DNA of 64,000 nucleotides, from IMG/VR virus record IMGVR_UViG_3300021426_000064, positions 120,342-184,341 of that record, one strand, 5' to 3'. This DNA is from a virus (lineage: Duplodnaviria > Caudoviricetes). The notes beneath the pieces were generated by a model. The model had not been told where the DNA came from, made no database searches, and saw only the letters and a program-made list of their open reading frames with translations. The position numbers and the translations under genes were made by a program. Positions 512 through 63,981 of the stretch are shown in pieces; positions within the stretch are counted from its first letter, which is position 1; every line of letters starts with the position of its first letter.

Positions 512-516
512 CCCCG

Positions 517-549
517 ATACCGCCCGCGATAAGCAGGCGGTATTTTTAT
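517..549 (+). terminator. intrinsic terminator
   Basis: ATACCGCC...GGCGGTAT stem followed by a T-tract. Confidence 0.7.
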
Positions 550-593
550 CTTGTATATAGTCAGAAAAATTTTAACATTTTGAAAAAATAGTA

Positions 594-653
594 TTGCCAA
601 AATGAGACCGTTGTGATAATATGTAAGTAGAGCGTAAGAAGTATGTAAGAAGT
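594..653 (+). promoter_or_regulatory. sigma70-like promoter with tandem GTAAG(A/T)AG operator-like repeats
   Basis: TTGCCA 594-599, TAATAT 617-622; GTAAGTAG 623-630, GTAAGAAGT 634-642 and 645-653. Confidence 0.55.
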
Positions 654-670
654 GAAAGGGGATAAAGAAG

Positions 671-3534: not shown

Positions 3535-3538
3535 CGAC

Positions 3539-3572
3539 AATCCGCCGAACACATTCGTGCCGGCGGATTTTT
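3539..3572 (+). terminator. intrinsic terminator
   Basis: AATCCGCCG...CGGCGGATT stem followed by TTT. Confidence 0.7.
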
Positions 3573-3586
3573 GCGTGTTTTACTTT

Positions 3587-3656
3587 GCTTCTTACCTACT
3601 TCTTAAATACTTCTTACATATTTTATATTGACAAATGTGTAAGAAGTGGATATAAT
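3587..3656 (+). promoter_or_regulatory. consensus sigma70 promoter with four operator-like repeats
   Basis: TTGACA 3628-3633, 17 bp, TATAAT 3651-3656; GTAAGAAGT in the spacer (3639-3647); three reverse copies (GCTTCTTAC, ACTTCTTAA, ACTTCTTAC) at 3587-3617. Confidence 0.85.
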
Positions 3657-3711
3657 AAGAACATAGAAAAGAAACTAAATACAGAGAAAAAACGTAGAAA
3701 GGAAGACGTTT

Positions 3712-4458
3712 TTGGCTATGAATACGCTCGTAGTTAAAGAGATCCCAATGATAGTCATGGGAGAAACACCGCTGATTAACAGCAGTGAGCTGGCCAGAAT
3801 CTTCGGTAAAAAACACGGCAACTTTGTTAACGCCACTAAGATTTACCTCGACTCTCTTCCGATTGCCAGGAAACATATTAAGCCTTCTGAAGACAACGAT
3901 AGCTATATGTTCGACTTGCAGGGGTTCACATCAATTACCCCATATATCGTAGGCAGTGAAAAGAGCAAAGCGATGAAGGTTGCAGAGGCTTTCGAAGAAG
4001 CATACCGACAGATTTCCCGTAACCGCGAAAACGAAGCAACGGATCGGCTAAGAAAAGCCGCAATGCAGTTTAAGGAAGAGCGCGATGATGCCGCAGAAAA
4101 GGTAAAAACGCTGGATGCGCTCTGCAACACCAGAGATTATTATTCGTTTTCCGATGCAGCTAAGTTAATCGGTATCCCACGCAAACGACTTATCCGCGCT
4201 TTGGAAGAACATGAATACATCATTCGCAAAGCAAGAGCCGGCCGCTACAAACAGACGACACTGATGCCAAAAGCCAAATACATGGCAGACGGACAGGGCG
4301 AAGGGCTGTTTGTGCTGAAGCAACTGAAGTTTGGTCCGGCATGGAAAAATGAAAAAGGCGAAACCTGCCAAAGCATGGTGCTTCACCCATATCTTACTGA
4401 AAAAGGTGTGGCAAGAATGCATGTGCTTCTAAAGAAGTGGGGTGAGCTCGCTGCGTGA
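3712..4458 (+). CDS. phage antirepressor (Rha-like N-terminus, KilAC/ANT C-terminus)
   Basis: SSELARIFGKKHGN Rha-like start; YSFSDAAKLIGI...YLTEKG ANT-type end. Confidence 0.8.
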   Translation: MAMNTLVVKEIPMIVMGETPLINSSELARIFGKKHGNFVNATKIYLDSLPIARKHIKPSEDNDSYMFDLQGFTSITPYIVGSEKSKAMKVAEAFEEAYRQISRNRENEATDRLRKAAMQFKEERDDAAEKVKTLDALCNTRDYYSFSDAAKLIGIPRKRLIRALEEHEYIIRKARAGRYKQTTLMPKAKYMADGQGEGLFVLKQLKFGPAWKNEKGETCQSMVLHPYLTEKGVARMHVLLKKWGELAA

Positions 4459-4681
4459 GATAAAAACGTGGAATTCTCCACTGGGGGCTAGAATACATTG
4501 CCCGAACTTTGATCCGTGTCCACTTTGTTATGGCTGCCGCAATTATACAGAGAAAGCTGTCCGCTGTGACCGCTGTGCTGAAGATGATAAAAAGCGCAAT
4601 GTATGTAATACAATAAGCCATACTGAAAAAGCGCTGGGTATGATGATTAGGCAAACCACTGTAAAAATATACGAGGAATAA
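4442..4681 (+). CDS. small Cys-rich (Zn-binding?) protein
   Basis: CPNFDPCPLCYGC and CDRC motifs; overlaps the previous gene. Confidence 0.6.
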   Translation: MSSLREIKTWNSPLGARIHCPNFDPCPLCYGCRNYTEKAVRCDRCAEDDKKRNVCNTISHTEKALGMMIRQTTVKIYEE

Positions 4682-4685
4682 TAAA

Positions 4686-5348
4686 TTGGAAGATTATAGA
4701 ATTAATAAAATATATACGAATCCAGAGGATATGTATGCGTGGCAGGGAAAAATCAAAGACCACGTAAATACAGACGAAAGTGACGGAGTTACTATTCTGG
4801 CTCCGGAAGGATACGGCAAGACCTATTTCTGCCGTGATATGATTAATGAATGGCTGGAAATGCTTGCTCCGGGTGCAAATATCCTGTACTATTCGCCCAA
4901 ACATGATGCCTGTGATAGGATGGCCGTAACATGTGCTTTTATTCAACAAGGGCATATGACCAGAGATTACACGATAACCAATGATGCTCAGCAGACGATT
5001 GTTATCCCTGTAACTGCACAGCAGCTAAAAGATGTGCTTTCGTCGGCAATGAGGTTCGACCTTATCATTATCGATGATGCAGATATAATGGGGAATGCCG
5101 CTCTCCACTCTATTATCCTGAAGGGTATGCTTGACGACGCAAAACTGGTCATCGTCGGCACATCCCATGAGAATGAAGAAATTCAGCTCAGTAAGAGTAT
5201 CTGGAAATGGCTTCTCAATCATCCGTGCTATACAGCATTTGAGGTTGTTAAACCGAGTTTACTACCGCAGGAAGAAGAAGCAGGAAAAACCATGATTGAC
5301 CACCTGATAAGTATTCTTCATCCTATGAAGTATCATTATGTAGCGTAA
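4686..5348 (+). CDS. P-loop NTPase (helicase/terminase-ATPase-like)
   Basis: APEGYGKT Walker A, IIIDDAD Walker B. Confidence 0.6.
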   Translation: MEDYRINKIYTNPEDMYAWQGKIKDHVNTDESDGVTILAPEGYGKTYFCRDMINEWLEMLAPGANILYYSPKHDACDRMAVTCAFIQQGHMTRDYTITNDAQQTIVIPVTAQQLKDVLSSAMRFDLIIIDDADIMGNAALHSIILKGMLDDAKLVIVGTSHENEEIQLSKSIWKWLLNHPCYTAFEVVKPSLLPQEEEAGKTMIDHLISILHPMKYHYVA

Positions 5349-5370
5349 AGGAAAGCAGGTAAACCAAAGT

Positions 5371-5673
5371 ATGACAAAAATCATTCCTATCGGAGAAAAG
5401 CTTCTGATTAAACCGGAAGTAAAAAACGATAAGCAGACAGCTTCCGGTATTGTAATTCCCGAAACATCTGTGGATAAGCCGCAGATTGGCGAAGTAGTGG
5501 CTGCTGGCGAAGGCCGCATCCTGGAAAATGGTACAATGATGCCGCTTACGGTTAAAGTCGGCGACCGAGTTCTTTTCCGCAAATTCGCAGGAACAGAAAT
5601 TAAAATCGACAAGGAAGACGATGTTCTTCTGCTGGTAACAGAACGCGATATTCTGGGTATCATCCAGAAATAA
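5371..5673 (+). CDS. groES: co-chaperonin GroES
   Basis: PIGEKLLI, TASGIVIP, GEVVAAGEG, VKVGDRVLF, ERDILGII. Confidence 0.95.
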   Translation: MTKIIPIGEKLLIKPEVKNDKQTASGIVIPETSVDKPQIGEVVAAGEGRILENGTMMPLTVKVGDRVLFRKFAGTEIKIDKEDDVLLLVTERDILGIIQK

Positions 5674-5730
5674 TGCAGATTTAGGCCGCCCATAGCGGGC
5701 GGCTGACAATCTAACCGGAGGAAAATAATT

Positions 5731-6306
5731 TTGCAATCTAATAATCAAAACATCAATCATCTCGAATTTTGGGCCAACCAGAAAGATATTTTGACGGGCA
5801 CCTTGAACGCGATGCAGGCTGAAAGACTGGAGAACGCTGTAAAGAAGCTCTATTATCCTGAATTGCAGCAGTTTGTTGTTCTGGTTCTGACCCGTAAGGT
5901 TGAAGAAGATGGCGAAATCGAAGATGCCTTGGGCGCATTTGAGTTAGGCGTAAGATACTTTACCGAGCGCGGGTATTACTACGAAATGGCCCCCAATAAG
6001 CAGACGTGCACATTCTTAGCGTCGCTCCTTCTGCATAACGTATACTTCAATCACCATATCCATAACGCTTTTGATTGGCTCAGAGTTTTCAAACTCCGTG
6101 ACGAAACCGAAGGCCTGGCTTATGCGCTTTATGAAATAATGGAATATAATGACCGCGGCATGTTTGAATTTGTATATCAGAATGTTGAAGCTCAGCTGGG
6201 CGAAGCAATGCCAACACCGGGCAATCGTCCGGTTCGTGGTCAGAATACGGAGCATTTCTGGAACGTGCTCTGGTTCTATTATCATGGCACACATTCGAAA
6301 TGGTAA
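5731..6306 (+). CDS. hypothetical protein (degenerate HD-like fold?)
   Basis: 191-aa ORF with RBS GGAGG; ASLLLHNV resembles the HD-domain AALLHD motif. Confidence 0.6.
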   Translation: MQSNNQNINHLEFWANQKDILTGTLNAMQAERLENAVKKLYYPELQQFVVLVLTRKVEEDGEIEDALGAFELGVRYFTERGYYYEMAPNKQTCTFLASLLLHNVYFNHHIHNAFDWLRVFKLRDETEGLAYALYEIMEYNDRGMFEFVYQNVEAQLGEAMPTPGNRPVRGQNTEHFWNVLWFYYHGTHSKW

Positions 6307-7028
6307 TTGAAATAACAGAAGAACAGCTTTTTGATTACATGAACTGTCCGGTGCGGTATGCCATAAAATATGGCAAGAATCATATCAAAGTACCGCCGCA
6401 GATAACTTTTCCAAAGCTGTTAAATCAGGTTGTGTATGGATTTTGTCAGTCGCTAAAGGACGGCATTGTGCTGCCGCCCGATAAAATAAAGCGAAAATGG
6501 GACACGGTTTGTAAAAATCATCCCGACAAAATCACCCAGGATAAAATCCGTGAAGGATTCGGGGCTCTGTATAGGTTTTATGAGTATGCAGAGGAAAACC
6601 AAATACTGGTTGCGGATATTGGTTCTCCCTATATCCTTCGCGTTAAAGATGGAGACGACACATACATTTATAACGGAACATTGGGGATAATCCTGTCTAA
6701 CAAAGATGGTGAGCCGGAAAATTTCAAAACAGATTTTTCCAGCAGGTTTCCAGAGCAAAGCAAACTGGATATGAATCTCAAGACCACGCTTGATCATGTA
6801 GGTTTTTATGAACTCTACAATTTGCCACTGAGTGGAACACGGGTTCACCATGTAAAAAAGAGCCGGGATTTTTATACCACCCGCGATATCCCAAGCTCAA
6901 CAAAAAGAGTAAGGACAATAATCGCTAATGTCTGTAAGTCAATAAGGCATAATATCTGGTATCCTCACGAGACTCCGTTGTGTTCTTCCTGTGAAGTAAG
7001 AGATTTTTGTATGATGTATGGCTCCTGA
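6300..7028 (+). CDS. PD-(D/E)XK/Cas4-like nuclease-fold protein
   Basis: N-terminal YMNCPVRY and C-terminal CSSC..C Fe-S-type pattern; ENFKT in place of DYKT. Confidence 0.7.
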   Translation: MVIEITEEQLFDYMNCPVRYAIKYGKNHIKVPPQITFPKLLNQVVYGFCQSLKDGIVLPPDKIKRKWDTVCKNHPDKITQDKIREGFGALYRFYEYAEENQILVADIGSPYILRVKDGDDTYIYNGTLGIILSNKDGEPENFKTDFSSRFPEQSKLDMNLKTTLDHVGFYELYNLPLSGTRVHHVKKSRDFYTTRDIPSSTKRVRTIIANVCKSIRHNIWYPHETPLCSSCEVRDFCMMYGS

Positions 7029-40101: not shown

Positions 40102-40716
40102 ATGTCTCACGTAGTAAGTAAATATGAACTGCAGCATGTAACCGTGGATGAGCTCCGTCAGATGGCATCTGACTGTAGAGAAAGCATCTGGGCTCAAGCG
40201 CAGTCTGTGGGTAGAGAACCTAAGCTCTATCTCCACTGGACGGCGGGCAGGTTTGGTCAGTTTTGGGACGATTATCATGTGCAGATAGATGGAGATGGAG
40301 AAATCTATGTCTATGGCTCATTGGATGATGTTCTTAGCCATACCTGGCGTCGCAATACCGGCAGTATCGGCATCACTCTTCTGGGTGCTTATGGTGCTAA
40401 CACAGAAGATTTGGGCGATTATGCTCCGACTGAAGCACAGATTGAATCTATGGCTCGTGCCGTAGAAGCTTTAGCCGATGGCCTGTGGCTTACCATCTCG
40501 AAAGAGTATGTCGCTACTCATGGCGAGGCAGCAGACAATGAATGCAACGACTGGTGCCATGAAAAGTATGGTCCTAAATCTACTTGTGAACGTTGGGATT
40601 TGGAATACCTGCAGACAGATGAAAGCCCGGAATTTAATCCCTGGGCAGAAGATGGCAGCCGTGGTGGCGATGTAATCCGTGGTAAGGCTAACTGGTATCG
40701 CAATCAGCGTGGTTAA
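40102..40716 (+). CDS. N-acetylmuramoyl-L-alanine amidase (Amidase_2)
   Basis: LYLHWTAG, YH..IDGDG.I, SHTWRRNTGSIGI, PTEAQIES, THGE. Confidence 0.88.
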   Translation: MSHVVSKYELQHVTVDELRQMASDCRESIWAQAQSVGREPKLYLHWTAGRFGQFWDDYHVQIDGDGEIYVYGSLDDVLSHTWRRNTGSIGITLLGAYGANTEDLGDYAPTEAQIESMARAVEALADGLWLTISKEYVATHGEAADNECNDWCHEKYGPKSTCERWDLEYLQTDESPEFNPWAEDGSRGGDVIRGKANWYRNQRG

Positions 40717-40730
40717 GAGGGGTAAACAAT

Positions 40731-41333
40731 ATGTCAGTATTTGACCTTTCCCATTGGCAACCGGCAGACCGCATTGCGGAGCTGGTCGAAGGCGGAAATT
40801 GCGACGGCGTTATCCTGAAGCTTGGGGAACGCAATGTAAAAACCGGTGAAATTGAACTTGATCCGATGTTTATCACTCATGTAAACGAGGCTGTTCGATT
40901 CGGTTTGCCGTACGGTATTTATATCATGGGACGCGCCAATAATGAAAATGAAGCTTTGGAAGAAGCTCAATGGGTAAACGATCGTGTTGCGGAGCTGTTA
41001 AACGGACAAGAACCGTCGCTGGGCACATGGTTTGACCTGGAACGGCCAGAAGTAAAACGGGATGGCGTTTATGAAGATTATCGTTTTGCAATTCTCCACT
41101 TAAGTGATTGGTGGGGTGGCAGCCATAAAATCGGTATCTACGCATCCTACTTATACTTTGAGGGCTATCTGGATATCGGTAATATGGCGGCAAACAGCAT
41201 CCCCGTCTGGAATGCCCAGTATGGTTTTGTAGATTCCATGCGCCAAAACTATCCATATATCAAAACAGTCTTGTGGCAGTTTACGAAAAACGACGATTAT
41301 CAGGATGAGAATGTGTGGTACGGCTGGTATTAA
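40731..41333 (+). CDS. GH25 lysozyme
   Basis: DLSHWQ, VILKLGE, WFDLE, W.AQY, WQFT, D.N. Confidence 0.88.
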   Translation: MSVFDLSHWQPADRIAELVEGGNCDGVILKLGERNVKTGEIELDPMFITHVNEAVRFGLPYGIYIMGRANNENEALEEAQWVNDRVAELLNGQEPSLGTWFDLERPEVKRDGVYEDYRFAILHLSDWWGGSHKIGIYASYLYFEGYLDIGNMAANSIPVWNAQYGFVDSMRQNYPYIKTVLWQFTKNDDYQDENVWYGWY

Positions 41334-41403
41334 GCCGCCCGCAAAATAATAAAAGCGCCCCGAATATGTGGGCGCCTATTTTGTAAAGAAGGGAAAAACA
41401 AGT

Positions 41404-41961
41404 ATGGATTTTCTAAAGAAACACAGTAAGACCATTATGGCCATAATCATTGTAGTATTAATAGCTGCGCTCATAAGGTTAACTTTTTTTAAAAAAATAC
41501 CCGAGCCGGAAATAGTAACCGTACCCGAGGTATCCCAAAAAAATCTCCAACAGTATTTCCCTATGGAGACAAAAGCTACTGTGAAAGATATGACGCACCA
41601 AATCCAGCGTGCAAAAGAAACTCAGACTCCGCAATACCACTATTATACCGCGACACAGCAAGAGGCGGATAATAAGGCCAAAGAGTATGGTAATGTGCAG
41701 AAGGCAGACAAAATCGTAAAAGAGACACATAAAGTTGAAGTCAAGGATGATAACGGCAATAAGACCCATGTTATCGAAAATGACTACTATGCGATTAATC
41801 TCGAACGAAAACACCGCATTAAAACCGGCGCGGCAATGATTGACCATGACGCTTATGTTACGGTCGGATATCAAAACCGGGATGTGGAATACAAGGCCTA
41901 CTACGCACCTACAGCCAATAAGGCGGGAGTTGGTGTAGAGGTTACAATTGCAAAATGGTGA
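41404..41961 (+). CDS. membrane-anchored lysis-cassette protein (spanin-like?)
   Basis: N-terminal TM; C-terminal beta strands ending VGVEVTIAKW. Confidence 0.6.
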   Translation: MDFLKKHSKTIMAIIIVVLIAALIRLTFFKKIPEPEIVTVPEVSQKNLQQYFPMETKATVKDMTHQIQRAKETQTPQYHYYTATQQEADNKAKEYGNVQKADKIVKETHKVEVKDDNGNKTHVIENDYYAINLERKHRIKTGAAMIDHDAYVTVGYQNRDVEYKAYYAPTANKAGVGVEVTIAKW

Positions 41962-41973
41962 GGAAAGAATACT

Positions 41974-42537
41974 ATGCTTAGAAGAATACCAGGATTAAGT
42001 AAAATGTTTAACGGCGGGACGCGTACAGTGGGTGATATGCCAAACCTTTTCCAGTTCCCGGAGTATGCGCCAGGAGACGCATTAAAACAGTATAAAGGTG
42101 GCGGCTCGTATCTGTTTAACGCTAAACTGCGGGAAGGGATTCCTCTCGACGCACAGGACAAGGCACTACAAAGAGGCTTAGATCGTGACCTGAACGCTCT
42201 ACCAGACTATCAGGAGCCGACATTCAGGTCGTATGATTTCCTTGACCAGGAAAGTTTAAGCGAATTTTTAGAGCAGCATAAACCCGGCCATATGGTGCAG
42301 TATCCTGCTTACACATCATCCGCCAAAAGTCCTAATGCATACTACGCTCCGAACGGAACGGGCATGCAGGCACTGATGAAAATTAATGGCAAACATGGAA
42401 AAGACTTAGCACACGTAGAATCCGCCTCAAACAATGAGCAGGAAGTGCTGTTTGGACGAAAATCTATGTTCAGGGTTAATAATATTGGGTATTCCCCTGA
42501 GATGAAGACTTATTTTGGCGAAATGGACGAAATATAA
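41974..42537 (+). CDS. R-S-E clade ADP-ribosyltransferase (VIP2/C3-like)
   Basis: N..LR, TFRS (R), YTSSAK (STS-like), NEQEVLF (ExE). Confidence 0.85.
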   Translation: MLRRIPGLSKMFNGGTRTVGDMPNLFQFPEYAPGDALKQYKGGGSYLFNAKLREGIPLDAQDKALQRGLDRDLNALPDYQEPTFRSYDFLDQESLSEFLEQHKPGHMVQYPAYTSSAKSPNAYYAPNGTGMQALMKINGKHGKDLAHVESASNNEQEVLFGRKSMFRVNNIGYSPEMKTYFGEMDEI

Positions 42538-43523
42538 TCCGCCACCAAACTTTTATACTTGTCAAGAACAGAGCATGATATATGGCTAGGTATCTCGTAT
42601 TGTGCTCCAAATATATTACCCGCAATGGAGGCAACGGTATCGCTGTCTCCATTTATATTTGCGGCGCGATTTATACAAGTATATATCCTATCGCCTGAGA
42701 GTATATGATAGAGAGCGAGGCCCAAAGCATTTGGTCCAATCCAGGCATCTCCAAAAGCGCCATAAAAAGTACGAAACGCAGATGTGCTTTTAGTATCGGC
42801 ACACGTTATGGCGTTGTATACGTAGTTATACGTTTCATTGAGGGGAAGCGTCATAAGTTCTCCAATACGTTCAAGATAGGACTTGTAAAATTCCAGGGCT
42901 GATAACAGAGCCGTTTTTACATCCATGTTATCACGAAGCAAGAAAAAGATAATTAGCGAAAATACGCCCGCGCTGCGCCATGCTTCTTTATGACCATGCG
43001 TAATTGCCGCGCACCGCATGGATAACTCAAAAACATATTCCGGCGGCTCGTTAATCAGAAAGCCGAACGGGGCAGAACGCATAACAGTGCCGTTACCCAG
43101 GCTATCGTTGTATTGTTTATCCAGTGTTCCCATGCAACCGGAGCGCAGGGAGTCAATACAGGCATGGCCGGGAGCCCGCATAGTATATAAATCATCTATC
43201 ATCCATAGCTCACCTACGTGGGCTATTTTTTCGTCTATGGCTCCGGGGCCATACTGCGTATTAAACCAACGGAGATATGATTCGTACATAATTTGCACAC
43301 GCTCATCCATCGATTTACCCTGACTGAGTGCTAACCCCTCAAGCGTAAACAATGTCATCTGGGTATCATCTGTGATGGCATCTCCTGGATTTAGCTCCTG
43401 CTTACCCTGCTCGCCATATTGCGATCTGATTTCATCCATAGTCATCATTTCTAGGTCAGAACCAAAAGCATCTCCATAGGCCCCGTATAAAATACATCGA
43501 TACATTCTATCCTGTTTAGTCAT
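42510..43523 (-). CDS. ADP-ribosylglycohydrolase (DraG/ARH family)
   Basis: GAYGDAFG, TDDTQM, GNGTVMR, ITHGH, GDSDT..SIAG. Confidence 0.92.
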   Translation of the reverse strand: MTKQDRMYRCILYGAYGDAFGSDLEMMTMDEIRSQYGEQGKQELNPGDAITDDTQMTLFTLEGLALSQGKSMDERVQIMYESYLRWFNTQYGPGAIDEKIAHVGELWMIDDLYTMRAPGHACIDSLRSGCMGTLDKQYNDSLGNGTVMRSAPFGFLINEPPEYVFELSMRCAAITHGHKEAWRSAGVFSLIIFFLLRDNMDVKTALLSALEFYKSYLERIGELMTLPLNETYNYVYNAITCADTKSTSAFRTFYGAFGDAWIGPNALGLALYHILSGDRIYTCINRAANINGDSDTVASIAGNIFGAQYEIPSHISCSVLDKYKSLVADYISSISPK

Positions 43524-43618
43524 AGCGACACCTCTTAAAAAATGATAAATTATGATATAATATTATGGCTACCGAACGGTGGCGGTTAATCAATGGCCCT
43601 GAGAAGGGGCGCCGGACG

Positions 43619-43687
43619 ATGAGTAAATATGTTTTTCATCTGATACTGATTTTAGTTCTCGCGCTTGTAAGCACCATAAAGGCATAA
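43619..43687 (+). CDS. type I toxin-like 22-aa hydrophobic peptide MSKYVFHLILILVLALVSTIKA
   Basis: RBS GAGAAGGGG; extended -10 TG.TATAAT at 43553-43561; predicted mRNA 5' end (GGCTACC..GGTGGCGGTTAATC) pairs with its 3' end (GACTGACCGTCACCGGTAGCC). Confidence 0.7.
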   Translation: MSKYVFHLILILVLALVSTIKA

Positions 43688-43780
43688 GAAAAGCCGCCTC
43701 TGGACTCGCAATCTTGTAGGCGGCGATTCTAATCGTTGTTCACATCTGTGGGACTGACCGTCACCGGTAGCCTTTTGGTA
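43686..43780 (-). ncRNA. antisense antitoxin RNA candidate
   Basis: Minus-strand promoter TTGATT-17-TATAAT (43814-43786); terminator GCCGCCT...AGGCGGC followed by TTTTCTT. Confidence 0.65.
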
Positions 43781-43885
43781 TGCATATTATACAACTTCAA
43801 GCTGATAAAATCAATACTACCGGTTGTCTCATCTGCTGGCTTTTGCAAGTCGCTCTTTCTTGGTGCCGGGATATATAAGCTACCC

Positions 43886-44128
43886 CTAAAAAAGTACTTC
43901 GTGTCTGTCGCACTGGCGGGCGAATGGATCTTCTATGTCGTATTGCTGCAACACCTCCAGTCGACACTCGCTCTTGTACCGCAAATCCTGATTTTCTAGC
44001 GACAAACGCTCTTTGTCTTGCCGTTCCCTGATAGTCAGGTAATAAACAGTGTTGACGGCAAGCGTACGAATGTCCTCCGTTGGTAGTTGTGTAATTTTCT
44101 CCATAATTCTTTCCTTAGAATCTTGCAC
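43886..44128 (-). CDS. hypothetical protein
   Basis: GTG start after AGGAGGT. Confidence 0.65.
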   Translation of the reverse strand: MQDSKERIMEKITQLPTEDIRTLAVNTVYYLTIRERQDKERLSLENQDLRYKSECRLEVLQQYDIEDPFARQCDRHEVLF

Positions 44129-44401
44129 AAAAATACCTCCTTTTTGTGCGCATAGCGTGGGTTTTCGCTATCGCGTAATCGAATTTAGCAACTTTGGCGA
44201 AGGCTAAATTTTCACATTGGTGTGAAATGAGATTACACATATATAGTAGCACAATGGCGTCAGAAAAACAATGTGTAATTTGAACCTTGCGATTAAGAAG
44301 CTAATGTGATAAAATGAAAGCAGATGCAAACAATGATGTGATATGCAACAACTTACATAAGACATTGTAATGTCTTTCATAGGAGGTGTCAAGAGAAAAT
44401 T

Positions 44402-44815
44402 ATGGATTTCGGAGAAAAGTTGAAAAAGCTGCGAAAAAAGAAGGGGTGGACACAGAGAGAAGTCGCAGATATGCTAAGTGTTTCCCCCAGGACTTATGCT
44501 TCGTACGAATTGGAAGGGCGCGAGCCGAAAGATATAGATAAATACTATGTCTTGGCAGAAATATTTGGAGTTTCAAAGGACTACTTTATAGAATCATCAA
44601 AAGGGATGGCAAAAATAAATTTAGGTGACTTATTTCCGGGGGTCGGCGCAACTGAAGTAACGGACGAGGTTAGGGCGAAAATGCTTACCGATGAACTTGT
44701 AACGCTGTTTATGAAGGGTGAGATGTCATCAAGGTTCAGAGATGACATCGCTGAACGGATCATGACTGCATATTGGGACGCAAAGAGAGGAGACGATATA
44801 CGTGTTAAAGGATGA
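44402..44815 (+). CDS. XRE-family HTH transcriptional regulator
   Basis: FGEKLKKLRKKKGWTQREVAD.L.VS..TY..YE..GREP. Confidence 0.9.
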   Translation: MDFGEKLKKLRKKKGWTQREVADMLSVSPRTYASYELEGREPKDIDKYYVLAEIFGVSKDYFIESSKGMAKINLGDLFPGVGATEVTDEVRAKMLTDELVTLFMKGEMSSRFRDDIAERIMTAYWDAKRGDDIRVKG

Positions 44816-45275
44816 CTTTGATAAACTCTTGCAAGATTTTTGTATTACATATTGGAAGAAACTATACGAATCCGTAAGAGAAAGTGCCAACGAACTAAAA
44901 ATAAATCGGGATATTACATTAGAAAAGCTTGATACGAACGGAATGGGATTGTTACGTAAGATGTCTGTCGGTCAACTTACTGAACATGAAAGGGTTATAT
45001 TAAAGGAGTTCCAAGAAGAAGCGTCAGAATATTTTGATGGAAAAAATACAGTAAATATATGGATTTTAATCAAAAGGACGAAAGGGAAGAATCGGTTGCA
45101 ATTCAAGACATTCGTTGGTATGGGGACGGAAGCAATTGAAAAGGCCCACGATTGGCTAGACGGAAAGACAGAAGAAAGGACAAGCGGTGACGGTGCCACC
45201 TATGTTAAGTCCTTAGATACAAAAGACGTTGTATATATAAAGCCGCTGCATGGGATTATTGCGCCATTTAAATAA
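44802..45275 (+). CDS. hypothetical protein
   Basis: 157 aa, overlaps the HTH gene end. Confidence 0.6.
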   Translation: MLKDDFDKLLQDFCITYWKKLYESVRESANELKINRDITLEKLDTNGMGLLRKMSVGQLTEHERVILKEFQEEASEYFDGKNTVNIWILIKRTKGKNRLQFKTFVGMGTEAIEKAHDWLDGKTEERTSGDGATYVKSLDTKDVVYIKPLHGIIAPFK

Positions 45276-46791: not shown

Positions 46792-47778
46792 ATGGCCAGC
46801 ATAGCTCCAGTACAAACTGAATTGGGATTTAAAACTCCCATGGATGAGAACCTGGTAACTCCAGATTACTTTGTAGCTTATTACCTGCAGTTCTTGCCGC
46901 GTTATATTGCTAACGGGCGCCCTACTGATGATACGCTGCGGGATTACAAAATTCATATAGACAGCTTTTTAAGATGGTGCGATGAACATAACCGGCATCC
47001 GCTATCCATTCATGATTACCAAATGCGTATGTATATGGAATGGATGGTAAACCATGAATACACCGATAACACCATCGCTATTAAACTGTCGGCAATTCGA
47101 GGGTTTTATCAGGCGGCGCTAAAAATCGGCCTCATAGAATTAAACCCGTGCGAAGATTTAAAAGCTGATAGAAAACTTGTCTGGGATGAAAAATTCCGCT
47201 TTTATTCTACGGAGCAAATAGAGATAATGAATGACTATATCAAAAATACCGCAATAAATGATTTTATTCGCTATAGAGATATGGCCATATTGTATCTGAT
47301 GGGTGTTGAAGGTTTGCGCAACGTAGAAGTTCACCGCCTTTGCGATGAAGATATTAACTGGGAATACGGTTCTATACTTATCAGAGGTAAGGAGCATAGC
47401 GGAATTATTTACCCATCTGAAGAAACTCTGGAGGTTCTCAGACGCTATATAGAAGCGCGGCCAGAAAATAAAAAAGAGGGGGCTTTCACCCCCACTATCA
47501 CATCTGACCATCGTCATAAATACAGAAGAATCTCTAGAAATGGTATACGCAATATCATGAATCGGATACTCGAAGGCTGCCAATTAAAACACCCAGGATA
47601 CTCCTGTCATATTCTGCGACATAGCTGTGGTACAAACCTTTATAATGAGACGAAAGACTTGCGGCTTGTGCAAGAACAACTTCGTCATAATGATCCGCAG
47701 ATGACGGCCAGGTATAGCCACGTTCATGAGCGTATGACTAGAAGAGCGACTTCTCGGTTGGCGCCGAAAATTGACTAA
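46792..47778 (+). CDS. XerC/D-like tyrosine recombinase
   Basis: SAM-like N-terminus, GLRNVE (R), RGK (K), HILRHS, LRH...MTARY (H, Y). Confidence 0.92.
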   Translation: MASIAPVQTELGFKTPMDENLVTPDYFVAYYLQFLPRYIANGRPTDDTLRDYKIHIDSFLRWCDEHNRHPLSIHDYQMRMYMEWMVNHEYTDNTIAIKLSAIRGFYQAALKIGLIELNPCEDLKADRKLVWDEKFRFYSTEQIEIMNDYIKNTAINDFIRYRDMAILYLMGVEGLRNVEVHRLCDEDINWEYGSILIRGKEHSGIIYPSEETLEVLRRYIEARPENKKEGAFTPTITSDHRHKYRRISRNGIRNIMNRILEGCQLKHPGYSCHILRHSCGTNLYNETKDLRLVQEQLRHNDPQMTARYSHVHERMTRRATSRLAPKID

Positions 47779-50414: not shown

Positions 50415-53400
50415 TTATTGCATGCAAAGCTGCATGACCTTATTGCTTGCTTCATTTGCCTTTTGCTGATATTCTTTGTACTGGGCATACTCTTGCGGCC
50501 TATTCTGCGCCGCCCACTGAATAACCCATGTTTTGCCAGATGCGTTAGGATCGTTCTGAATTGCAGACTCCCAACCGGCGAATAGCACATCTGCTTTTTT
50601 TGTGTAATCATCCATGATTTTTTCGTACTGTTTTATCTGAGCGCGCTTTTCTTTTTCAGCTGCTTCGTTGAAAACAGGTTCAGGGTTAACACCCTTATTG
50701 TTTGTCTTTTCTATCTGCTTACCTACAGATGTCTCTTTTGATACATTTATCGAGTTTAACAGCTTCCATACAGTCTTGGGGTCTACAAACGAGCCGTTTT
50801 TATCTTGTACGCGCAAAATAAAATTATCACTGCACGCCGCGCAGATTTCCCCCTTGCTTATGTTTTGCTTGTTAGCATCTTTGCTGAGTTTATCTTCACT
50901 AAGCCCTGCGAAGATGTATGTGTAGCCAGAATGTCTGCTTGTCATCTTAATGTACTTGCCAATAGCCTCATCAGATAATACTCCGGCTCCATCACAATCT
51001 TCTGGCGCATGAACACTAATTTCCGCACTACACTTGAATACCAACGCATTAGATACGACTCCTACGCCAGAACCCGCATTCGCAACGCCAAAATCTTGAA
51101 TCCAGTATACGTTATTCAAATCTTTTGTTGGTATTGGGAAATCCATACCTTCTTCTTGATTTGCAAGCTGCGACAATCCAGTATTTGCAGCATCGATAAT
51201 CTGGTAGGCCTGAACGACAGCTGGGAAAAATTCCGGATCGCTACTTGCCTCTTCGAGGGCTTTTCTCCATTCCCAGTTATACATGCGGGTACTGTTATTG
51301 TTATTGTTCCCATTGCTACTGTTACTACTGTCGTCATTGTTCATGGGTGCGCTCATAAGTTCAGCCAGCCCATCGCTCCATTTTTTATATGCCGTAACAG
51401 GCGCAATGGAATTCCCATTAAAGGTATATTGCTCTGAAAGCTTTTTTAGCTCTTTAACGCCGGCCTCTATCTGTCCTTCTATTGCGCCGCTATTCGTACC
51501 GAATAATCCTTGGGCAGGGTCACCATTACTGATAACCGCAATAACTGCCATCGCGAGAAGTGGGTCGATTTTATTTTCGCCAGCAATACGTTGAAGCGTT
51601 TGCTCATATCCATTGAGCTTCAGGTTTTTAACAGCTTCTTCCGCCCTTGCCTTACCATTGGATAAACCTGCAGATATGGATTCTTTTGCTTTTGGCCACC
51701 AAATCTTCATCTCTTGCTTCTTTTTATCACCAGTAGTATTTGAAGAACTGTTATCACCAGTTCCGCTATTGTCTTTTGGATCGTATTTCCCAGCAAGAAC
51801 ATCATCCATGAACTGCTTGTGCCCATCAATAGATGATTTGTAATCACCTGGATTAATAGAAACTGTAGGCGTAAGACCGGATGAACCTGGTCCATTTGCC
51901 AGCTGATAAGAAGCAAGTTTCTCTGGGGACTTATCGTCAGAATTAATATCCTGCCGCCAGTTAATCTGCGGCTTCTGTTGCTCTACCGGAGTGAGCTTCC
52001 AGCCCATCTTAACACCATCATCCCACTGATCTTTGAATGGGCGTTCGTTCTGGTCTCTCGTGCCGGTGGTCTTATAATTGAGCTGGTAGTCTATCTTCTT
52101 GTCGTGCATCTGCTCGATGCGCAGGAAGTTTATGTAGTCTTCCATGTTCATCATGCCAGCCTGAATATCGTCTTGGATATTTGCCAGGTTAGCACCAACT
52201 TCATTAAGAATATCGAAAGTTTGTCCTATGATAGGTTCGTAGCGCGAACAAGATAGGCACTGATCAATCTGCATGACCTGACCATCTTCCAAAAGATTAT
52301 CCTTCAGGCATCTAATCGCACAGTACTTTTGTCGATGGTCCTGTCCTCCGTAATACTGACAATTGATGTGCATTCGTTTACCCATGCCGAATACATATCT
52401 CATCATGGTAGCCAATACATTTTCCAATTTTACAATACGCTTTTCGGTAAAGTCAGAAAGTGTCAATATGGCTGAAGCAAGCTCCTTGGTTTCCATATGG
52501 TCTCTTGTATATGGCAGCCGATACTGTTTAACACGAGGAGCGTGGTTCTCCAGTTCCTCTATTTTAAGATCGACAGGGTACGGATCGTTATTGTTTAATG
52601 GCTTTCCAGCACTTGGTACTTTTACCTCGCTGATAGAATTTTGCGGATCAAATGGACGCTGCGCAAGTTTTTGAGCCTGATCGGTTGTGAAAGCATTGCC
52701 ATCTATTCCCATTAGATCTTGCATGGTTTTGCTCGTCATTATGCCGTAGTCGCCAACTTGGTCCATATTCTCCATACCGTTAACAGCTGTAGTTTCTACG
52801 GCCGTATTTGGGATATTCCCTTGAACATACACCAGGTCGGGATATACCGGTTCGCTGTATGTTTTTCCCTTGGGGTTAATTTCAACCCAGGTGTGATGGT
52901 CAGTTATGTTGTTATTCGCCGGCCCAAGTGCTTTGTTCATTGCTCCGCCCGCAGGATTTTTGCCGCCTTCAGCCTGAGACTGTGCATTGAAGTTTGGCTT
53001 GATGCCATCGTGGGAGGTTGTTGGTATCCACCAATCGCATACGCCGCCATCTGCAAGTACGGTTTCCAAATCCCAATGGTAATCATCACCATTTTTATTG
53101 CGTGAGCCCCCCTGATTTGGGTCATTAATTATAAGCCCCTGGTTATCCAGCTTTGCATAAACAATATAATGGCCGCCGCCAGTAAAGAGTCCATCACCAT
53201 GGGCTGCAATAACGGGAAATCCTGCTTTTAATGCTTCTCTTACCGGCCCAGGATCATTTACATATTTAAATTCTACGCCGTATGACGGGCCTCTGTCCTG
53301 AAATGCGGTATGGTCTGTGCCCTGTCCTAACACTCTATGGCCAGACTGAACAAAATCATCTGCAACCATGTCCGGCGTTACATTTTTCCCATACCATGCA

Positions 53401-53600
53401 CATACCATAGCAAAGGAGGTTGGGCCGCAGCCGGAAGTACAAACTGTAGACCCATCACTGCCATAAGGATGGTCCGCCCAGCGTTCATCCCACTGATGGT
53501 ACAGGGGAACTCCCGACGAATTTCCCTGTGAACTAGGGGCATTGGTGTTTTGCTTATTGTCTTCTGGCTTGGTAGATGTATTATTATTCGTATCCGGCAA
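50415..53600 (-). CDS. multidomain virion-associated hydrolase: C39-like peptidase with degenerate SLT-like and M23-like domains
   Basis: YHQWDERW, SGCGPTSFAMV, GHYIV, INDP; IDPLLAMAVIAVIS (SLT-like); M23-like fold ending VDP. Confidence 0.7.
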   Translation of the reverse strand: MPDTNNNTSTKPEDNKQNTNAPSSQGNSSGVPLYHQWDERWADHPYGSDGSTVCTSGCGPTSFAMVCAWYGKNVTPDMVADDFVQSGHRVLGQGTDHTAFQDRGPSYGVEFKYVNDPGPVREALKAGFPVIAAHGDGLFTGGGHYIVYAKLDNQGLIINDPNQGGSRNKNGDDYHWDLETVLADGGVCDWWIPTTSHDGIKPNFNAQSQAEGGKNPAGGAMNKALGPANNNITDHHTWVEINPKGKTYSEPVYPDLVYVQGNIPNTAVETTAVNGMENMDQVGDYGIMTSKTMQDLMGIDGNAFTTDQAQKLAQRPFDPQNSISEVKVPSAGKPLNNNDPYPVDLKIEELENHAPRVKQYRLPYTRDHMETKELASAILTLSDFTEKRIVKLENVLATMMRYVFGMGKRMHINCQYYGGQDHRQKYCAIRCLKDNLLEDGQVMQIDQCLSCSRYEPIIGQTFDILNEVGANLANIQDDIQAGMMNMEDYINFLRIEQMHDKKIDYQLNYKTTGTRDQNERPFKDQWDDGVKMGWKLTPVEQQKPQINWRQDINSDDKSPEKLASYQLANGPGSSGLTPTVSINPGDYKSSIDGHKQFMDDVLAGKYDPKDNSGTGDNSSSNTTGDKKKQEMKIWWPKAKESISAGLSNGKARAEEAVKNLKLNGYEQTLQRIAGENKIDPLLAMAVIAVISNGDPAQGLFGTNSGAIEGQIEAGVKELKKLSEQYTFNGNSIAPVTAYKKWSDGLAELMSAPMNNDDSSNSSNGNNNNNSTRMYNWEWRKALEEASSDPEFFPAVVQAYQIIDAANTGLSQLANQEEGMDFPIPTKDLNNVYWIQDFGVANAGSGVGVVSNALVFKCSAEISVHAPEDCDGAGVLSDEAIGKYIKMTSRHSGYTYIFAGLSEDKLSKDANKQNISKGEICAACSDNFILRVQDKNGSFVDPKTVWKLLNSINVSKETSVGKQIEKTNNKGVNPEPVFNEAAEKEKRAQIKQYEKIMDDYTKKADVLFAGWESAIQNDPNASGKTWVIQWAAQNRPQEYAQYKEYQQKANEASNKVMQLCMQ

Positions 53601-54021: not shown

Positions 54022-55227
54022 TTAGGATGCCTTAAAATTGTAGACGGGTTTAATAATCTCTAAAATATCCACGGTATCCCTTACATCTTCCAGGATGTTA
54101 TCGATACTTTTATAAGCCATAGGAGCTTCATCCAATGTGTCCTCATTTACAGATGTCGTATAGATGCCGTTATTCTCCATGGTCTTTTTATACTCGTCCA
54201 TACTGAGTTTTTCGCGGGCGGCCTTACGCGACATTATACGGCCAGCGCCATGCGGTGCAGAATAGTTCCACTCCTCAACACCTTTGCCTATGCCGATAAT
54301 GCAGCCATCCCGCATATTCATCGGGATAAGGATCTTTTCTCCCTTGCGGGCCGAAATTGCGCCTTTACGGAGTATCATCTCATCCACGTTGATATAGTTG
54401 TGGATTGTGGAGAACTGCTCCTCTACAGTATACCTGCAATGCTTCACAATGATTTCTGCCATCAGCTTGCGGCTCTCGTCAGCAAACTCCTGACAGATTA
54501 CAATATCGTGCAAATAGTCATTCATATACTCGCCGTAAAGATAGGCTAAGTCGTCAGGAATATCGGACTTATGTTTCTGCCAGGTGAGCTCCTTTAGTGC
54601 ACCCTGAATCTCCTGACGCCGCCCTTGCTCTTTATACGTGCGAATGAGTTCGTCGCGGGCCTTGATGTATTCTTCCTTCCCTTGATGCAGTTCAATGGCA
54701 AGATTCTGATAGTATTCTGCCACCTGTTTGCCTAAATTACGGCTGCCGGAATGGATAATAAGATAGTATTCCCCAGAGGAACTTTTGTCCAGCTCTACGA
54801 AATGATTGCCTCCTCCCAGTGTACCTAGACTTCTTTCCAGACGTTTAGTGTCCCGCAGATTACGGAAGCACTTGAGTCGGGTCAGGTCAAATCGCTTCTG
54901 CCTGCCGTCCCAGACATTAAATCCGGACGGAATGTAATGACAGGCTTCGTCCAGTGTTGGGAAGTCAATGATTTTATCCTTGAGCTTGCTGGTAAGCATT
55001 CCACAGCCGATGTCTACTCCAACTAAATTAGCACAAACCTTGTCCGTAATGGTCATGGTCGTTCCAATTGTGCAGCCAGCCCCGGCATGAACATCCGGCA
55101 TGATGCGTATTTTGCTGCCGCGAGTAAGCTCGTAATCACACATGCGTTTTATCTGTTCTCTTGCCTCATCCTCAATAATGGATGCGTAAGAGACAGCTTC
55201 GCCAATTTTACCCTTAATAAGTTCCAA
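54022..55227 (-). CDS. rtcB: RtcB family RNA ligase
   Basis: MPDVH.G, VGVDIGCG, GTLGGGNHF, HSGSR, HNY, HGAGR, DEAP.AYK. Confidence 0.95.
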   Translation of the reverse strand: MELIKGKIGEAVSYASIIEDEAREQIKRMCDYELTRGSKIRIMPDVHAGAGCTIGTTMTITDKVCANLVGVDIGCGMLTSKLKDKIIDFPTLDEACHYIPSGFNVWDGRQKRFDLTRLKCFRNLRDTKRLERSLGTLGGGNHFVELDKSSSGEYYLIIHSGSRNLGKQVAEYYQNLAIELHQGKEEYIKARDELIRTYKEQGRRQEIQGALKELTWQKHKSDIPDDLAYLYGEYMNDYLHDIVICQEFADESRKLMAEIIVKHCRYTVEEQFSTIHNYINVDEMILRKGAISARKGEKILIPMNMRDGCIIGIGKGVEEWNYSAPHGAGRIMSRKAAREKLSMDEYKKTMENNGIYTTSVNEDTLDEAPMAYKSIDNILEDVRDTVDILEIIKPVYNFKAS

Positions 55228-62538: not shown

Positions 62539-63804
62539 TTAAATATACGAAACCAAAACCGCTTTGCGATGTTCGATTCGTTTGATTTTTTTGCAGGAAA
62601 TGCCTGCACTTATTTTTGTGCCATCCAGTTTACGGATATCCATATAACCACTGGAACGGCGACCAAAGATAAATCCTTCTTGTCCAAGACATTCCACCCG
62701 GTCAAAAAGTTGATAGCCAAATACATGTTTTGGTGTTTGGTTCAGCTTGCGAGTACCGCCTTTGTTGATTTTGCATTTGTAAATCTGGCGGTTATGTTGC
62801 CGTTTTGGAACTACCAACAACGATTTCTCTAACCGTTTAGCATCCAAATTCTTCGTCACTACAAAAGCATCGCTCGCGTGGGTTTTGGTAATGTTTTTCT
62901 TTTCTCGCCAGTACTTTGTGATGTAGCCATAGGTACTGCAGACCTCGATGTCCGGGAACATGGCCTTCAGCCGGTTCATCAGTGTTTTACGCATGATACC
63001 CATAAAGGCTGCATCTCGTGTGCTGTTGCGTCTGCGTCTGCTGGTTGGCAGTTTTACAGCCCCGGCATGGTAGCCCGTGTGACAATCTACACAAAGTGTT
63101 ATCAGGTTGTCAGGAGCATCACCGCCGGTTTTACGGCTTTCCAGATGATGTACATGGAGCTTCACTGATTTGGTTTTAGTGTCATGTGCTCCACAACACT
63201 GGCAGGTGTAGCCGTCCCGGTGCAAAACATACTGTCTAACATTGTACTGATTGTACTGCTCGCCGAGCTGGTAATCCGTCCCGACCGGCAGTGGCTCTCC
63301 AGCCATCATGGCCTTCAACCGTTGCATATCAAACTCTGCTGTTTCAACGCGGATTGTCGTGAGTGGCAGGAGTTTTGTAACCAGCCGGATTCCTTGGATG
63401 TGATTCCAGATTTTTACCTCCACGGAGGGAGCCAGCCAGCCTTTATGTTTGGCATGAACCCTATTGTCGAATCGTGGCTGGCGATATCTGGTAGTTCTAT
63501 TGCGGCGAGAACGACGCATTTCCAACCGTGATGACATAAGCTCAGTTACATCATTGCGTGGCTGAAGTTCAGCAGAAAACAGTTCTTTCTCTTTCGTCGT
63601 GGCCGATAGCCCGACGTGCTTACTCCCGGCATCAACACCGAGGGTAATATCTTGGACAAAAGTTTTGCTTGTTCCCGTCAATCTAATGGTAAACGGGCAT
63701 CTTTTGACAACCGTAGCCTTACCAAACTTAAGGAGCAGCCGCACCTTAGCGTGGCTTTCAGTAGGCATAATCGGTTGTCCAGACTTACTTAGTACGTAGA
63801 CCAC
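62539..63804 (-). CDS. iscB: IscB RNA-guided endonuclease
   Basis: PLMP-like QPIMPT, RuvC-I LGVDAG, bridge helix RRSRR.R..RYR, RuvC-II VE, HNH HVHH...NLITLC..CH, RuvC-III HASDA; GTG start after GGGAGG. Confidence 0.93.
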   Translation of the reverse strand: MVYVLSKSGQPIMPTESHAKVRLLLKFGKATVVKRCPFTIRLTGTSKTFVQDITLGVDAGSKHVGLSATTKEKELFSAELQPRNDVTELMSSRLEMRRSRRNRTTRYRQPRFDNRVHAKHKGWLAPSVEVKIWNHIQGIRLVTKLLPLTTIRVETAEFDMQRLKAMMAGEPLPVGTDYQLGEQYNQYNVRQYVLHRDGYTCQCCGAHDTKTKSVKLHVHHLESRKTGGDAPDNLITLCVDCHTGYHAGAVKLPTSRRRRNSTRDAAFMGIMRKTLMNRLKAMFPDIEVCSTYGYITKYWREKKNITKTHASDAFVVTKNLDAKRLEKSLLVVPKRQHNRQIYKCKINKGGTRKLNQTPKHVFGYQLFDRVECLGQEGFIFGRRSSGYMDIRKLDGTKISAGISCKKIKRIEHRKAVLVSYI

Positions 63805-63814
63805 AGCACGGCCT

Positions 63815-63981
63815 CCCTTCTCGAAAATTTTGTCCCCTATCGAAGCAGGGGGGTAACACCCACCAAAGTGGGGTAAGTTGTCCGTAGCCAATGTTATCCT
63901 GAGGCTTTGTATATTTGCAGCACTGTCCCTACCCATCAGGATTGTTTAACTACAAACCGCAGTGCGGCAGATTCGGACTCA
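63815..63981 (-). ncRNA. omega RNA (HEARO-like), partial
   Basis: CTGCGG...TTAAACA.TCCTGA.GGGTAGGGACAGTG.TGCA...CCTCAGGATAACATTGGC pattern typical of IscB leaders. Confidence 0.75.

Follow-up and report, generated by a model that had tools for sequence, protein, structure and literature searches.

The virus record IMGVR_UViG_3300021426_000064 (Duplodnaviria; Caudoviricetes) carries two facing, overlapping genes predicted to write and to erase ADP-ribose marks, and we put at roughly 55% the probability that they form one coupled effector and antidote cassette. The DNA analyzed here, called the window, is the final 64 kb (64,000 nucleotides [nt]) of this record, which represents a linear virus of 184,341 nt with a completeness of 78% as estimated by CheckV. 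The first gene (41974..42537, plus strand) encodes a standalone R-S-ExE ADP-ribosyltransferase (ART) of 187 amino acids, assigned from Pfam, PHROGs, alignment, and a structural model. The second gene (42510..43523, minus strand) encodes an ADP-ribosylhydrolase (ARH) of 337 amino acids with the DraG/ARH fold, assigned from Pfam, alignment, and a model. The logic of such a cassette would be like that of Tre1/Tri1, but with convergent genes. The evidence for coupling comes from the shared ends of the two genes, from their linkage in close relatives, and from the variants of the locus in which they appear to be exchanged or lost.

The ART and ARH genes overlap tail to tail by 28 nt (42510..42537, both strands), and the overlap encodes the last residues of both proteins. 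An earlier note on this DNA had described facing genes with a 3' overlap of this length, and the sequence reads the same way here. The overlap codes for YFGEMDEI-stop in ART on the plus strand and for YISSISPK-stop in ARH on the minus strand. The two frames have their third codon positions at the same nucleotides, and therefore each residue in one tail largely fixes a residue in the opposite tail. The constrained partner appears to be ART, because its residues 179-186 form the last beta-strand of the model (predicted local distance difference test [pLDDT] scores of 95-98), because E186 is kept in nearly all of 44 aligned sequences (the window protein and 43 relatives, each of at most 330 residues), and because most of 15 standalone ART relatives end in a similar way, with hydrophobic-x-hydrophobic-x-E-[IV]. 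It is proposed that the last residues of ARH are a by-product of this beta-strand.

The tail of ARH runs past the end point of the tail-less relatives P0005, P0011, P0013, and P0014, and it can therefore be used as a marker of an overlapping ART gene. Eight of the 12 nearest ARH relatives have kept the tail, with identities to the window ARH that range from 91% down to 41-48%. The ending ISSISPK is found in P0003, P0004, P0007, P0008, and P0010, and variants are found in P0006 (ISFISPK), P0009 (ISSNSPR), and P0012 (SVISPK). The tail is found in none of the 108 further ARH relatives listed. In P0006-P0010 the last eight residues match at five to eight of eight positions, whereas of the preceding 23 residues only two to six match. 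The ART relatives show the other side of this pattern. P0002 (58% identical to the window ART), P0123 (42%), and P0132 (79%, a fragment of 53 amino acids) carry the same ending, YFGEMDEI, and that of P0126 (37%) is FFGEIDEV.

The linkage of ART and ARH is conserved in the close clade, as read from bridging contigs, protein tails, and shared contig sizes. A 38,216-nt contig of X5, a sheep metagenome from a different study, spans positions 41300-43522 with 61 differences and three gaps (about 97% identity). Two shorter contigs, one of 1,219 nt from X2 and one of 486 nt from X6, bridge the overlap as well. In diverged relatives, linkage was read from the protein tails and from matching contig sizes, which were compared by eye, a shared size being taken as the same contig. 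In the ART cluster of P0001 (about 93% identity to the window ART), five of the seven members match a member of the ARH cluster of P0003 in the size of the longest contig (334,475; 6,258; 5,022; 3,874; and 3,452 nt). In the ART cluster of P0002, two of the three members have sizes, 11,077 and 8,837, that recur in the two members of the ARH cluster of P0007 (63% identical), and the ART fragment P0132 shares the size 7,587 with the ARH P0008. As a control, 10 standalone ART clusters that are more distant, with 33 members in all, were compared with the sizes of 120 ARH rows, and no member matched; one control contig has 4,619 nt against 4,618 nt for P0019. Linkage in relatives had been named beforehand as a test of the proposed pairing, and in this clade the two genes are linked.

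Several other searches for linked relatives gave little. Three pairs with a common size, P0125-P0020 (178,298), P0129-P0014 (85,169), and P0127-P0019 (4,618), were rejected as evidence of overlap; at most they indicate the same contig, not adjacency, and no ART tail is mirrored at the ends of P0014, P0019, and P0020. Single-protein scans of viral contigs found no close relatives as DNA, and a search of genome contigs with the ART alignment found none either. The ARH alignment of the close clade found a single relative in the genome contigs, 24% identical, in a metagenome-assembled genome of Myxococcota. A search of viral contigs for the junction pattern gave seven matches, and these were set aside as chance, since by tblastn none encodes a relative of ART or ARH.

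The locus also occurs in forms that have kept ARH and have lost or degraded ART. X10, an RNA library assembled as contigs, carries an ART-less variant that resembles P0005. Its contig of 1,529 nt consists of the membrane-protein gene next to ART (41668-41832, 82% identical), 225 other letters, ARH sequence corresponding to 42603-42648, and then a part that is 98% identical to 42982-43591. In place of the 770 nt with ART there are thus 225 letters, which is too little DNA for an ART gene, and ARH is kept. In the P0008 lineage the ART cluster consists only of open reading frames of 53 and 82 amino acids. From these sequences it seems that ART can be lost or can decay with ARH retained. No ART without the ARH signature was seen in the close clade, in which sampling is thin. 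This asymmetry is as expected of a toxin and its antidote.

ARH is a mosaic protein within the close clade. Residues 1-196 are 83-95% identical among P0003-P0008. Residues 197-290 drop to 21-29% identity in P0005-P0008, and the region 197-329 is variable overall. P0005 has an N-terminal half that is 95% identical to the window ARH, a different C-terminal half, and no tail. The ART gene and the C-terminal half of ARH appear to have been exchanged together. The variant that lacks ART also has a different C-terminal half of ARH.

ART looks enzymatically active from its conserved residues and its modeled fold. It matches Pfam family PF03496 (ADPrib_exo_Tox) with 26.1 bits (E 6.2e-6), a narrow margin over the cut-off of 23.4, and phrog_595 with an E value of 2.1e-14 toward the C-terminal end, where the match covers positions 360-497 of the 513 in the profile. 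A search of 1.84 billion representative proteins found 686 relatives at E <= 0.001 and just one at E <= 1e-30. The only invariant columns among the 44 aligned sequences are N49, R85, S115, E155, and E157, which agrees with the previous description of the protein as an ExE-type ART. In the alignment with ExoT, the motifs TFRG, STS, and EQE occupy the positions of R85, S115 (within STS), and E155/E157. The AlphaFold model has a mean pLDDT of 88.6 and is confident from residue 35 on, with low confidence for residues 1-35 (pLDDT 53-71; window positions 41974-42078). The model matches 147 PDB chains at E <= 0.001, and the top match is Tre1 (6drh_F; E 3.5e-11, root-mean-square deviation of 2.1 Å, 153 columns, 24% identity), followed by ExoS, ExoT, Vis, C3, and SpvB. 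At the sequence level, ExoT is the best match among solved structures (E 0.0022), with a marginal match to Tre1 (E 0.34). In its predicted structure ART most closely resembles a bacteria-targeting arginine ART. The ExE motif goes with arginine modification in this class of enzymes. Given this motif and the Tre1/ExoS-like fold, arginine is the most likely target residue.

Most relatives of ART are domains of larger proteins. The domain lies at the C-terminal end of proteins of 470-560 amino acids or within proteins of 1,000-3,900 amino acids, and PHROGs and the viral fold library label the proteins that bear it as head morphogenesis (MuF), portal, or polyvalent proteins. The window ART has no MuF domain; it is only 187 amino acids long, and its start is preceded by a stop codon at a distance of 12 nt. 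Among cultured phages, ART matches five records with 30-35% identity, as domains of head proteins or as unnamed proteins. The standalone ARTs nearest to that of the window (relatives P0123-P0134) share an N-terminal motif, approximately L-x-K-S-N, followed after five to 12 residues by (D/N)-L-(F/Y)-x-(F/V). This motif is absent from the linkers in MuF-ART fusions. One may speculate that it is a docking or partner-binding element. In one lineage (P0001, P0273, and P0277) the open reading frame of ART is called 27 residues longer, and the additional residues resemble the middle of the 197-amino-acid membrane protein encoded upstream (60% identity over 25 residues). This suggests that a deletion fused part of the membrane-protein gene to ART.

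ARH is an intact member of its superfamily and also looks active, on the basis of its sequence and model. It matches Pfam family PF03747 (ADP_ribosyl_GH) with 169 bits and an E value of 2.3e-49 (cut-off 26.2), and 1,668 relatives were found at E <= 0.001 in a word-indexed protein collection. E25, D52, D53, T54, D293, and D295 are invariant across 60 ARH sequences. The motifs E25, D52-D53-T54, and D293-S294-D295-T296 are intact and match the DDT and GDxDT motifs of DraG. Acidic and threonine residues of this kind are generally known as metal-site residues of ARHs. The accessible text of PMC8120803 describes a binuclear metal site formed by them. The model of ARH is an all-alpha fold with a pLDDT of 91.3 and a predicted template modeling score of 0.93. 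It matches MJ1187, DraG, Tri1 (6dre_A), Lmo0067 (8za7), ARH3, and ARH1 about equally well, with Tri1 among the top three. The analogy to Tre1/Tri1 that was drawn in the earlier note is thus borne out by the models of both proteins, Tre1 being the top match of ART.

The same note had called the gene DraG/ARH, and this holds for the family and the intact motifs but not at the level of equivalogs. ARH scores 55.5 bits against the DraG equivalog (NCBIfam TIGR02662, cut-off 337.05) and 44.9 bits against the Tri1 equivalog (NCBIfam NF041672, cut-off 490), so it belongs to neither. The Tri1 profile is matched from position 66 of 361, at residue 3 of ARH, and for this reason the Tri1-type N-terminal extension is judged to be absent. 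In Tri1 this extension occludes Tre1, according to the accessible text of PMC8120803. The sequence of ARH does not tell its substrate preference. The gene has a strong ribosome-binding site (AAGAGGTG). ARH matches 10 records of cultured phages with 20-32% identity, none of which is also on the list for ART, and neither protein matches a defence-system family of PADLOC.

If the two genes form an effector and antidote cassette, ART would be an NAD+-dependent mono-ADP-ribosyltransferase of the R-S-ExE class that acts on a bacterial protein, most likely on arginine. It would be produced alongside the late and lysis genes. ARH would be a metal-dependent hydrolase that removes the mark set by ART, and it would be transcribed separately from the opposite strand. 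Because of this separate transcription, ARH could be present when the late operon is silent, in a lysogen or early in infection. Lacking a Tri1-type plug, it would work through reversal of the damage, as type IV antitoxins and the hydrolase half of Tri1 do. The tail-to-tail overlap would bind the two genes into a single unit of inheritance. We infer the target, the modified residue, the reversal by ARH of the mark of this ART, the timing, any packaging, and any transcriptional interference. The early or late switch, packaging as in T4 Alt, and antisense cross-regulation that the earlier note put forward are accordingly hypotheses.

A number of results weigh against the coupled cassette. DraT/DraG and Tre1/Tri1 are operons, whereas the genes of this pair are convergent and on opposite strands. 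ARH lacks the extension of Tri1 and scores far below the cut-offs of the DraG and Tri1 equivalogs, which leaves arginine specificity a prediction. ARH exists without ART and may therefore have a separate function, and the retention of ARH after the loss of ART is equally expected if ARH has a use of its own. The matching of contig sizes is indirect; the short size of 3,452 nt also fits the unrelated ARH P0055, and chance matches are possible. Outside the close clade the two genes are mostly apart. When 15 ART queries were compared by tblastn with the available flanks of ARH genes, an ART of this family was found at none of 80 metagenome loci and was absent near 78 of 80 viral loci. The metagenome loci are among the matches listed, are 32-43% identical, and are in many cases short; the ARHs at the viral and metagenome loci together are 22-43% identical to the window ARH. 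In the other direction, no ARH was found within 6 kb of ART at six viral ART loci (ART 30-33% identical). Linkage is therefore a feature of this clade and not of the two families as such. A predicted complex of ART and ARH (scores of 0.16, 0.66, and 0.01) counts neither for nor against the pairing.

Two of the 80 viral ARH loci, L053 and L079, do have an ART, in each case as a MuF-ART fusion followed by ARH on the same strand. The L053 locus (1068-3922) encodes a MuF-ART of 578 amino acids (ART match by tblastn, E 1e-7) and directly after it a DraG-like ARH of 309 amino acids, and the L079 locus (4120-6804) encodes a MuF-ART of 492 amino acids (E 8e-6) and a DraG-like ARH of 258 amino acids. 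A head-type ART adjoining ARH is thus a recurrent arrangement in phages, in a co-directional form. Pairs of this type had been said to be usually co-directional, and both of these other phage neighbors are so. Downstream (3') of ARH, both loci encode a conserved protein of 125-137 amino acids with CxxC motifs.

Two independent accessory genes in a hot spot are the strongest alternative, although an unlikely one. ARH would then be a counter-defence eraser of marks set by the ARTs of host defences, or set on host proteins by other phages, and ART would be an effector for host take-over, with neither enzyme acting on what the other produces. Phage erasers without a partner have a precedent in AdfN, a NADAR that counters DarT1 (accessible text of PMC11825919). 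Independence would fit with the ARH-only variants at the locus and with the absence of an ART of this family near 78 of the 80 viral and all 80 metagenome ARH loci. It would also fit with the position of the pair between lysis genes and a lysogeny module, beside another small accessory element. On the other hand, the overlap persists while ARH falls to about 41-47% identity and ART to 42-58%, and chance neighbors would be expected to separate. The apparent joint swap of ART and the C-terminal half of ARH likewise weighs against independence; the ART-less variant has another C-terminal half as well.

Two further explanations give ART a different role, and both are improbable. In a reversible switch like DraT/DraG, ART would set the timing of lysis or help it along by modifying one protein of the host or the phage, such as a factor of cell division or of the cell wall, and ARH would reset that protein. 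A switch of this type would explain why ART lies 12 nt behind the genes of the lysis cassette and is co-directional with them. DraG is among the best matches of ARH, and Tre1, the nearest solved structure to ART, modifies Arg174 of FtsZ (accessible text of PMC8120803). However, ART can be lost cleanly or can decay where the lysis genes and ARH stay, which argues that it is not essential for lysis, and nothing points to a target. Still less probable is that ART is a decaying remnant of a MuF-type, head-packaged ART, with selection acting on ARH alone. The preponderance of fusions to MuF, portal, or polyvalent proteins in the ART family, the short reading frames (53-82 amino acids) of the P0008 lineage, and the existence of the ART-less variant point in this direction. 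The window ART, however, is full length, with all catalytic residues and a confidently predicted fold; the same ART protein is found on several contigs (four for P0274 and 11 for P0272), and relatives at 58% and 42% identity retain the motifs.

A more elaborate version of the effector and antidote cassette is unlikely. The pair would be a polymorphic effector-immunity cassette for competition among related gut phages. ART, made late and bearing a clade-specific N-terminal peptide, would leave in the virion or the lysate and hit the next cell, and ARH expressed from a prophage would immunize lysogens against the ART of related phages. Orphan ARH genes would be kept for the same purpose, and ART and the C-terminal half of ARH would be exchanged as a specificity unit. 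The overlap would lock the genes together and make their transcription collide, so that the locus switches between a protected and an armed state.

The pair has similarities to several known systems. In Tre1/Tri1 of Serratia proteamaculans (PDB 6dre and 6drh), an R-S-E ART also adjoins a DraG-like hydrolase, and an effector is combined with an enzyme that reverses its mark (accessible text of PMC8120803). Tre1/Tri1 consists of a type VI secretion system ART toxin and a bifunctional ARH immunity protein that has the occluding N-terminal extension, and its genes are co-directional. The pair described here, in contrast, is carried by a phage, has no PAAR or type VI secretion context, has an ARH without the extension, and is convergent and overlapping. 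In addition, the title of PDB entry 8za7 (Lmo0067 of Listeria) refers to an ART-ARH effector-immunity pair. DraT/DraG of nitrogen-fixing bacteria is likewise a writer and eraser of arginine ADP-ribosylation, and DraG is among the best matches of ARH in both sequence and fold. In this case, however, ARH is not a DraG equivalog, ART belongs to PF03496 with no DraT family among its Pfam matches, and there is no nitrogenase context.

ART also shares a Pfam family (PF03496) with T4 Alt and other packaged phage ARTs (Alt/VIP2). Fusions to MuF, portal, or polyvalent proteins predominate among the viral structural matches of ART, and many phage ARTs are described as MuF fusions in the accessible text of PMC9503650. 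The window ART differs from the T4 Alt type in that it has no head domain and has 187 amino acids compared to 470-3,900 in the fused forms. L053 and L079 combine the same broad ART family with a directly adjacent ARH in a phage late region. There, however, ART is the C-terminal domain of a MuF protein and ARH (about 23-26% identical to the window ARH) is on the same strand, while in the window ART is standalone behind lysis genes and ARH faces it. T4 is not known to have an ARH partner.

Phage ART-ARH pairs as a type of system have already been predicted in print. In a survey of viral systems of NAD+ and ADP-ribose, Iyer et al. 2022 (PMC9503650) predicted toxin-antitoxin pairs of ART and ARG (ARH) in certain Aeromonas phages. 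According to section 3.7.1 of that paper, these also combine a phage ART with an ARH-fold eraser of modified macromolecules. The pair in the window comes from a large animal-gut phage, and it was compared with the Aeromonas pairs by their description in the text. ARG domains are reported there in only about 5% of jumbo phages. Convergent overlap and dual-coded tails are not mentioned in the accessible text on the Aeromonas pairs. Searches of the literature brought up no account of ART and ARH genes that converge and overlap, nor of this clade, although the figures and supplements of PMC9503650 may bear on gene order. What appears new is that the genes are conserved tail to tail with dual-coded ends, that they lie between lysis genes and a lysogeny module in a large gut phage, that ART is a standalone descendant of a head-type family, and that ART and the C-terminal half of ARH appear to be exchanged jointly.

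Reversible ADP-ribosylation is a recurrent weapon in conflicts among bacteria and between bacteria and phages. Few pairs of a writer and an ARH-fold eraser are known to have been studied experimentally, among them DraT/DraG and Tre1/Tri1. Phage pairs of this kind appear only as predictions in the accessible text of PMC9503650. The locus described here is compact, with a 187-amino-acid ART and a 337-amino-acid ARH, and it has informative features in its natural ART-less variants and in an ARH with a conserved N-terminal half and a swapped C-terminal half. The conserved dual-coded overlap shows how convergent genes can stay together. If ARH is an antidote expressed in lysogens, it would constitute a phage-borne immunity that could shape the coexistence of phages in gut communities.

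The pair is located between lysis genes and genes typical of a lysogenic life style. Upstream of ART on the plus strand are an N-acetylmuramoyl-L-alanine amidase of 204 amino acids (40102..40716; Pfam Amidase_2, E 3.3e-11; phrog_5867 endolysin, E 7.1e-31) and a GH25 muramidase of 200 amino acids (40731..41333; Pfam Glyco_hydro_25, E 5e-9; phrog_291 endolysin, E 3.7e-16), each a putative part of an endolysin. They are followed by a protein of 197 amino acids with one N-terminal hydrophobic segment, probably a single transmembrane helix (41368..41961; phrog_10797 of unknown function, E 1.3e-11). The gaps from amidase to muramidase to membrane protein to ART are 14, 34, and 12 nt, all on the plus strand, so ART is the last gene of the lysis run, as had been stated before. 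Farther upstream are replication genes resembling PolIII-alpha and RecJ and long fibre-type proteins with DUF285/BspA-type repeats. Downstream of the pair are a helix-turn-helix regulator (44402-44815), two proteins without assignment, and a tyrosine integrase (46792-47778; Pfam Phage_integrase, E 6.8e-22). ARH therefore sits between the lysis side and the regulator-integrase module. Because of the regulator and the integrase, the phage is probably temperate, and it is large. The whole record has a single match each to the ART and ARH families. Twenty rows of runs, belonging to 12 studies and labelled as metagenomes of gut, feces, or sheep, contain the stretch, and the contigs of four of the 21 runs listed were compared against the window.

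The claim that no terminator separates the genes holds trivially, as there is no intergenic DNA that could contain one, but two terminator-like hairpins for the plus strand lie inside the ARH gene, in antisense orientation. The first, a hairpin followed by UUUAUAUUU (42624-42653), was detected as an inverted repeat and by folding, 87 nt beyond the ART stop codon. The second (43205-43226) has nine pairs and then U6 (-11.4 kcal/mol, z -2.99). These hairpins could end the late transcript. The region has seven terminator-like sites compared to 6.3 expected from shuffles, which is not above chance. On the minus strand, no convincing terminator was found past the ARH stop codon (z -1.06), and Rfam gave no matches at E <= 1 over 41000-45000. 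The putative promoter region of ARH is an AT-rich stretch (43524..43600, minus strand) with two weak sigma-70-like matches (9/12 each). A GC-rich hairpin at 43684-43733 (GCCGCCT...AGGCGGC, then UUUUCUU on the minus strand) is likely a terminator for a leftward transcript of an open reading frame of 72-80 amino acids (43886-44128), and with a terminator at this site ARH would need its own promoter.

A structured element of about 205 nt (43565-43775, plus strand) begins just past an extended -10 box, TGATATAAT (43551-43559). The two ends of the element pair with each other, and a run of U comes next (minimum free energy -74.4 kcal/mol, z -2.46). The element has an internal GC-rich hairpin and a 22-codon open reading frame for a hydrophobic peptide, MSKYVFHLILILVLALVSTIKA (43620-43688), with the ribosome-binding site AGAAGGGG. 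No match to it was found in Rfam, ARAGORN, or cultured phages, there is no second copy in the record or the surveyed loci, and one 20-mer from it has no exact match in IMG/VR. The depth of the element is about two to nine times that of its flanks in all four runs, and loose ends at 43565 and 43775 indicate that it occurs in other contexts. From its sequence it looks like a type I toxin mRNA or a small RNA that is mobile, and it lies next to the promoter region of ARH, facing away from it. The X2 and X5 contigs join 43522 to 44143, showing that related phages lack or replace the 620 nt between the start of ARH and the region upstream of the helix-turn-helix gene. Nearly all genes are on the plus strand up to about 47.8 kb, where a block of minus-strand genes begins. 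This block encodes a protein of 1,061 amino acids with an N-terminal C39-like peptidase domain (50415-53600), an RtcB RNA ligase (54022-55227), and an RRXRR/HNH protein (62539-63936).

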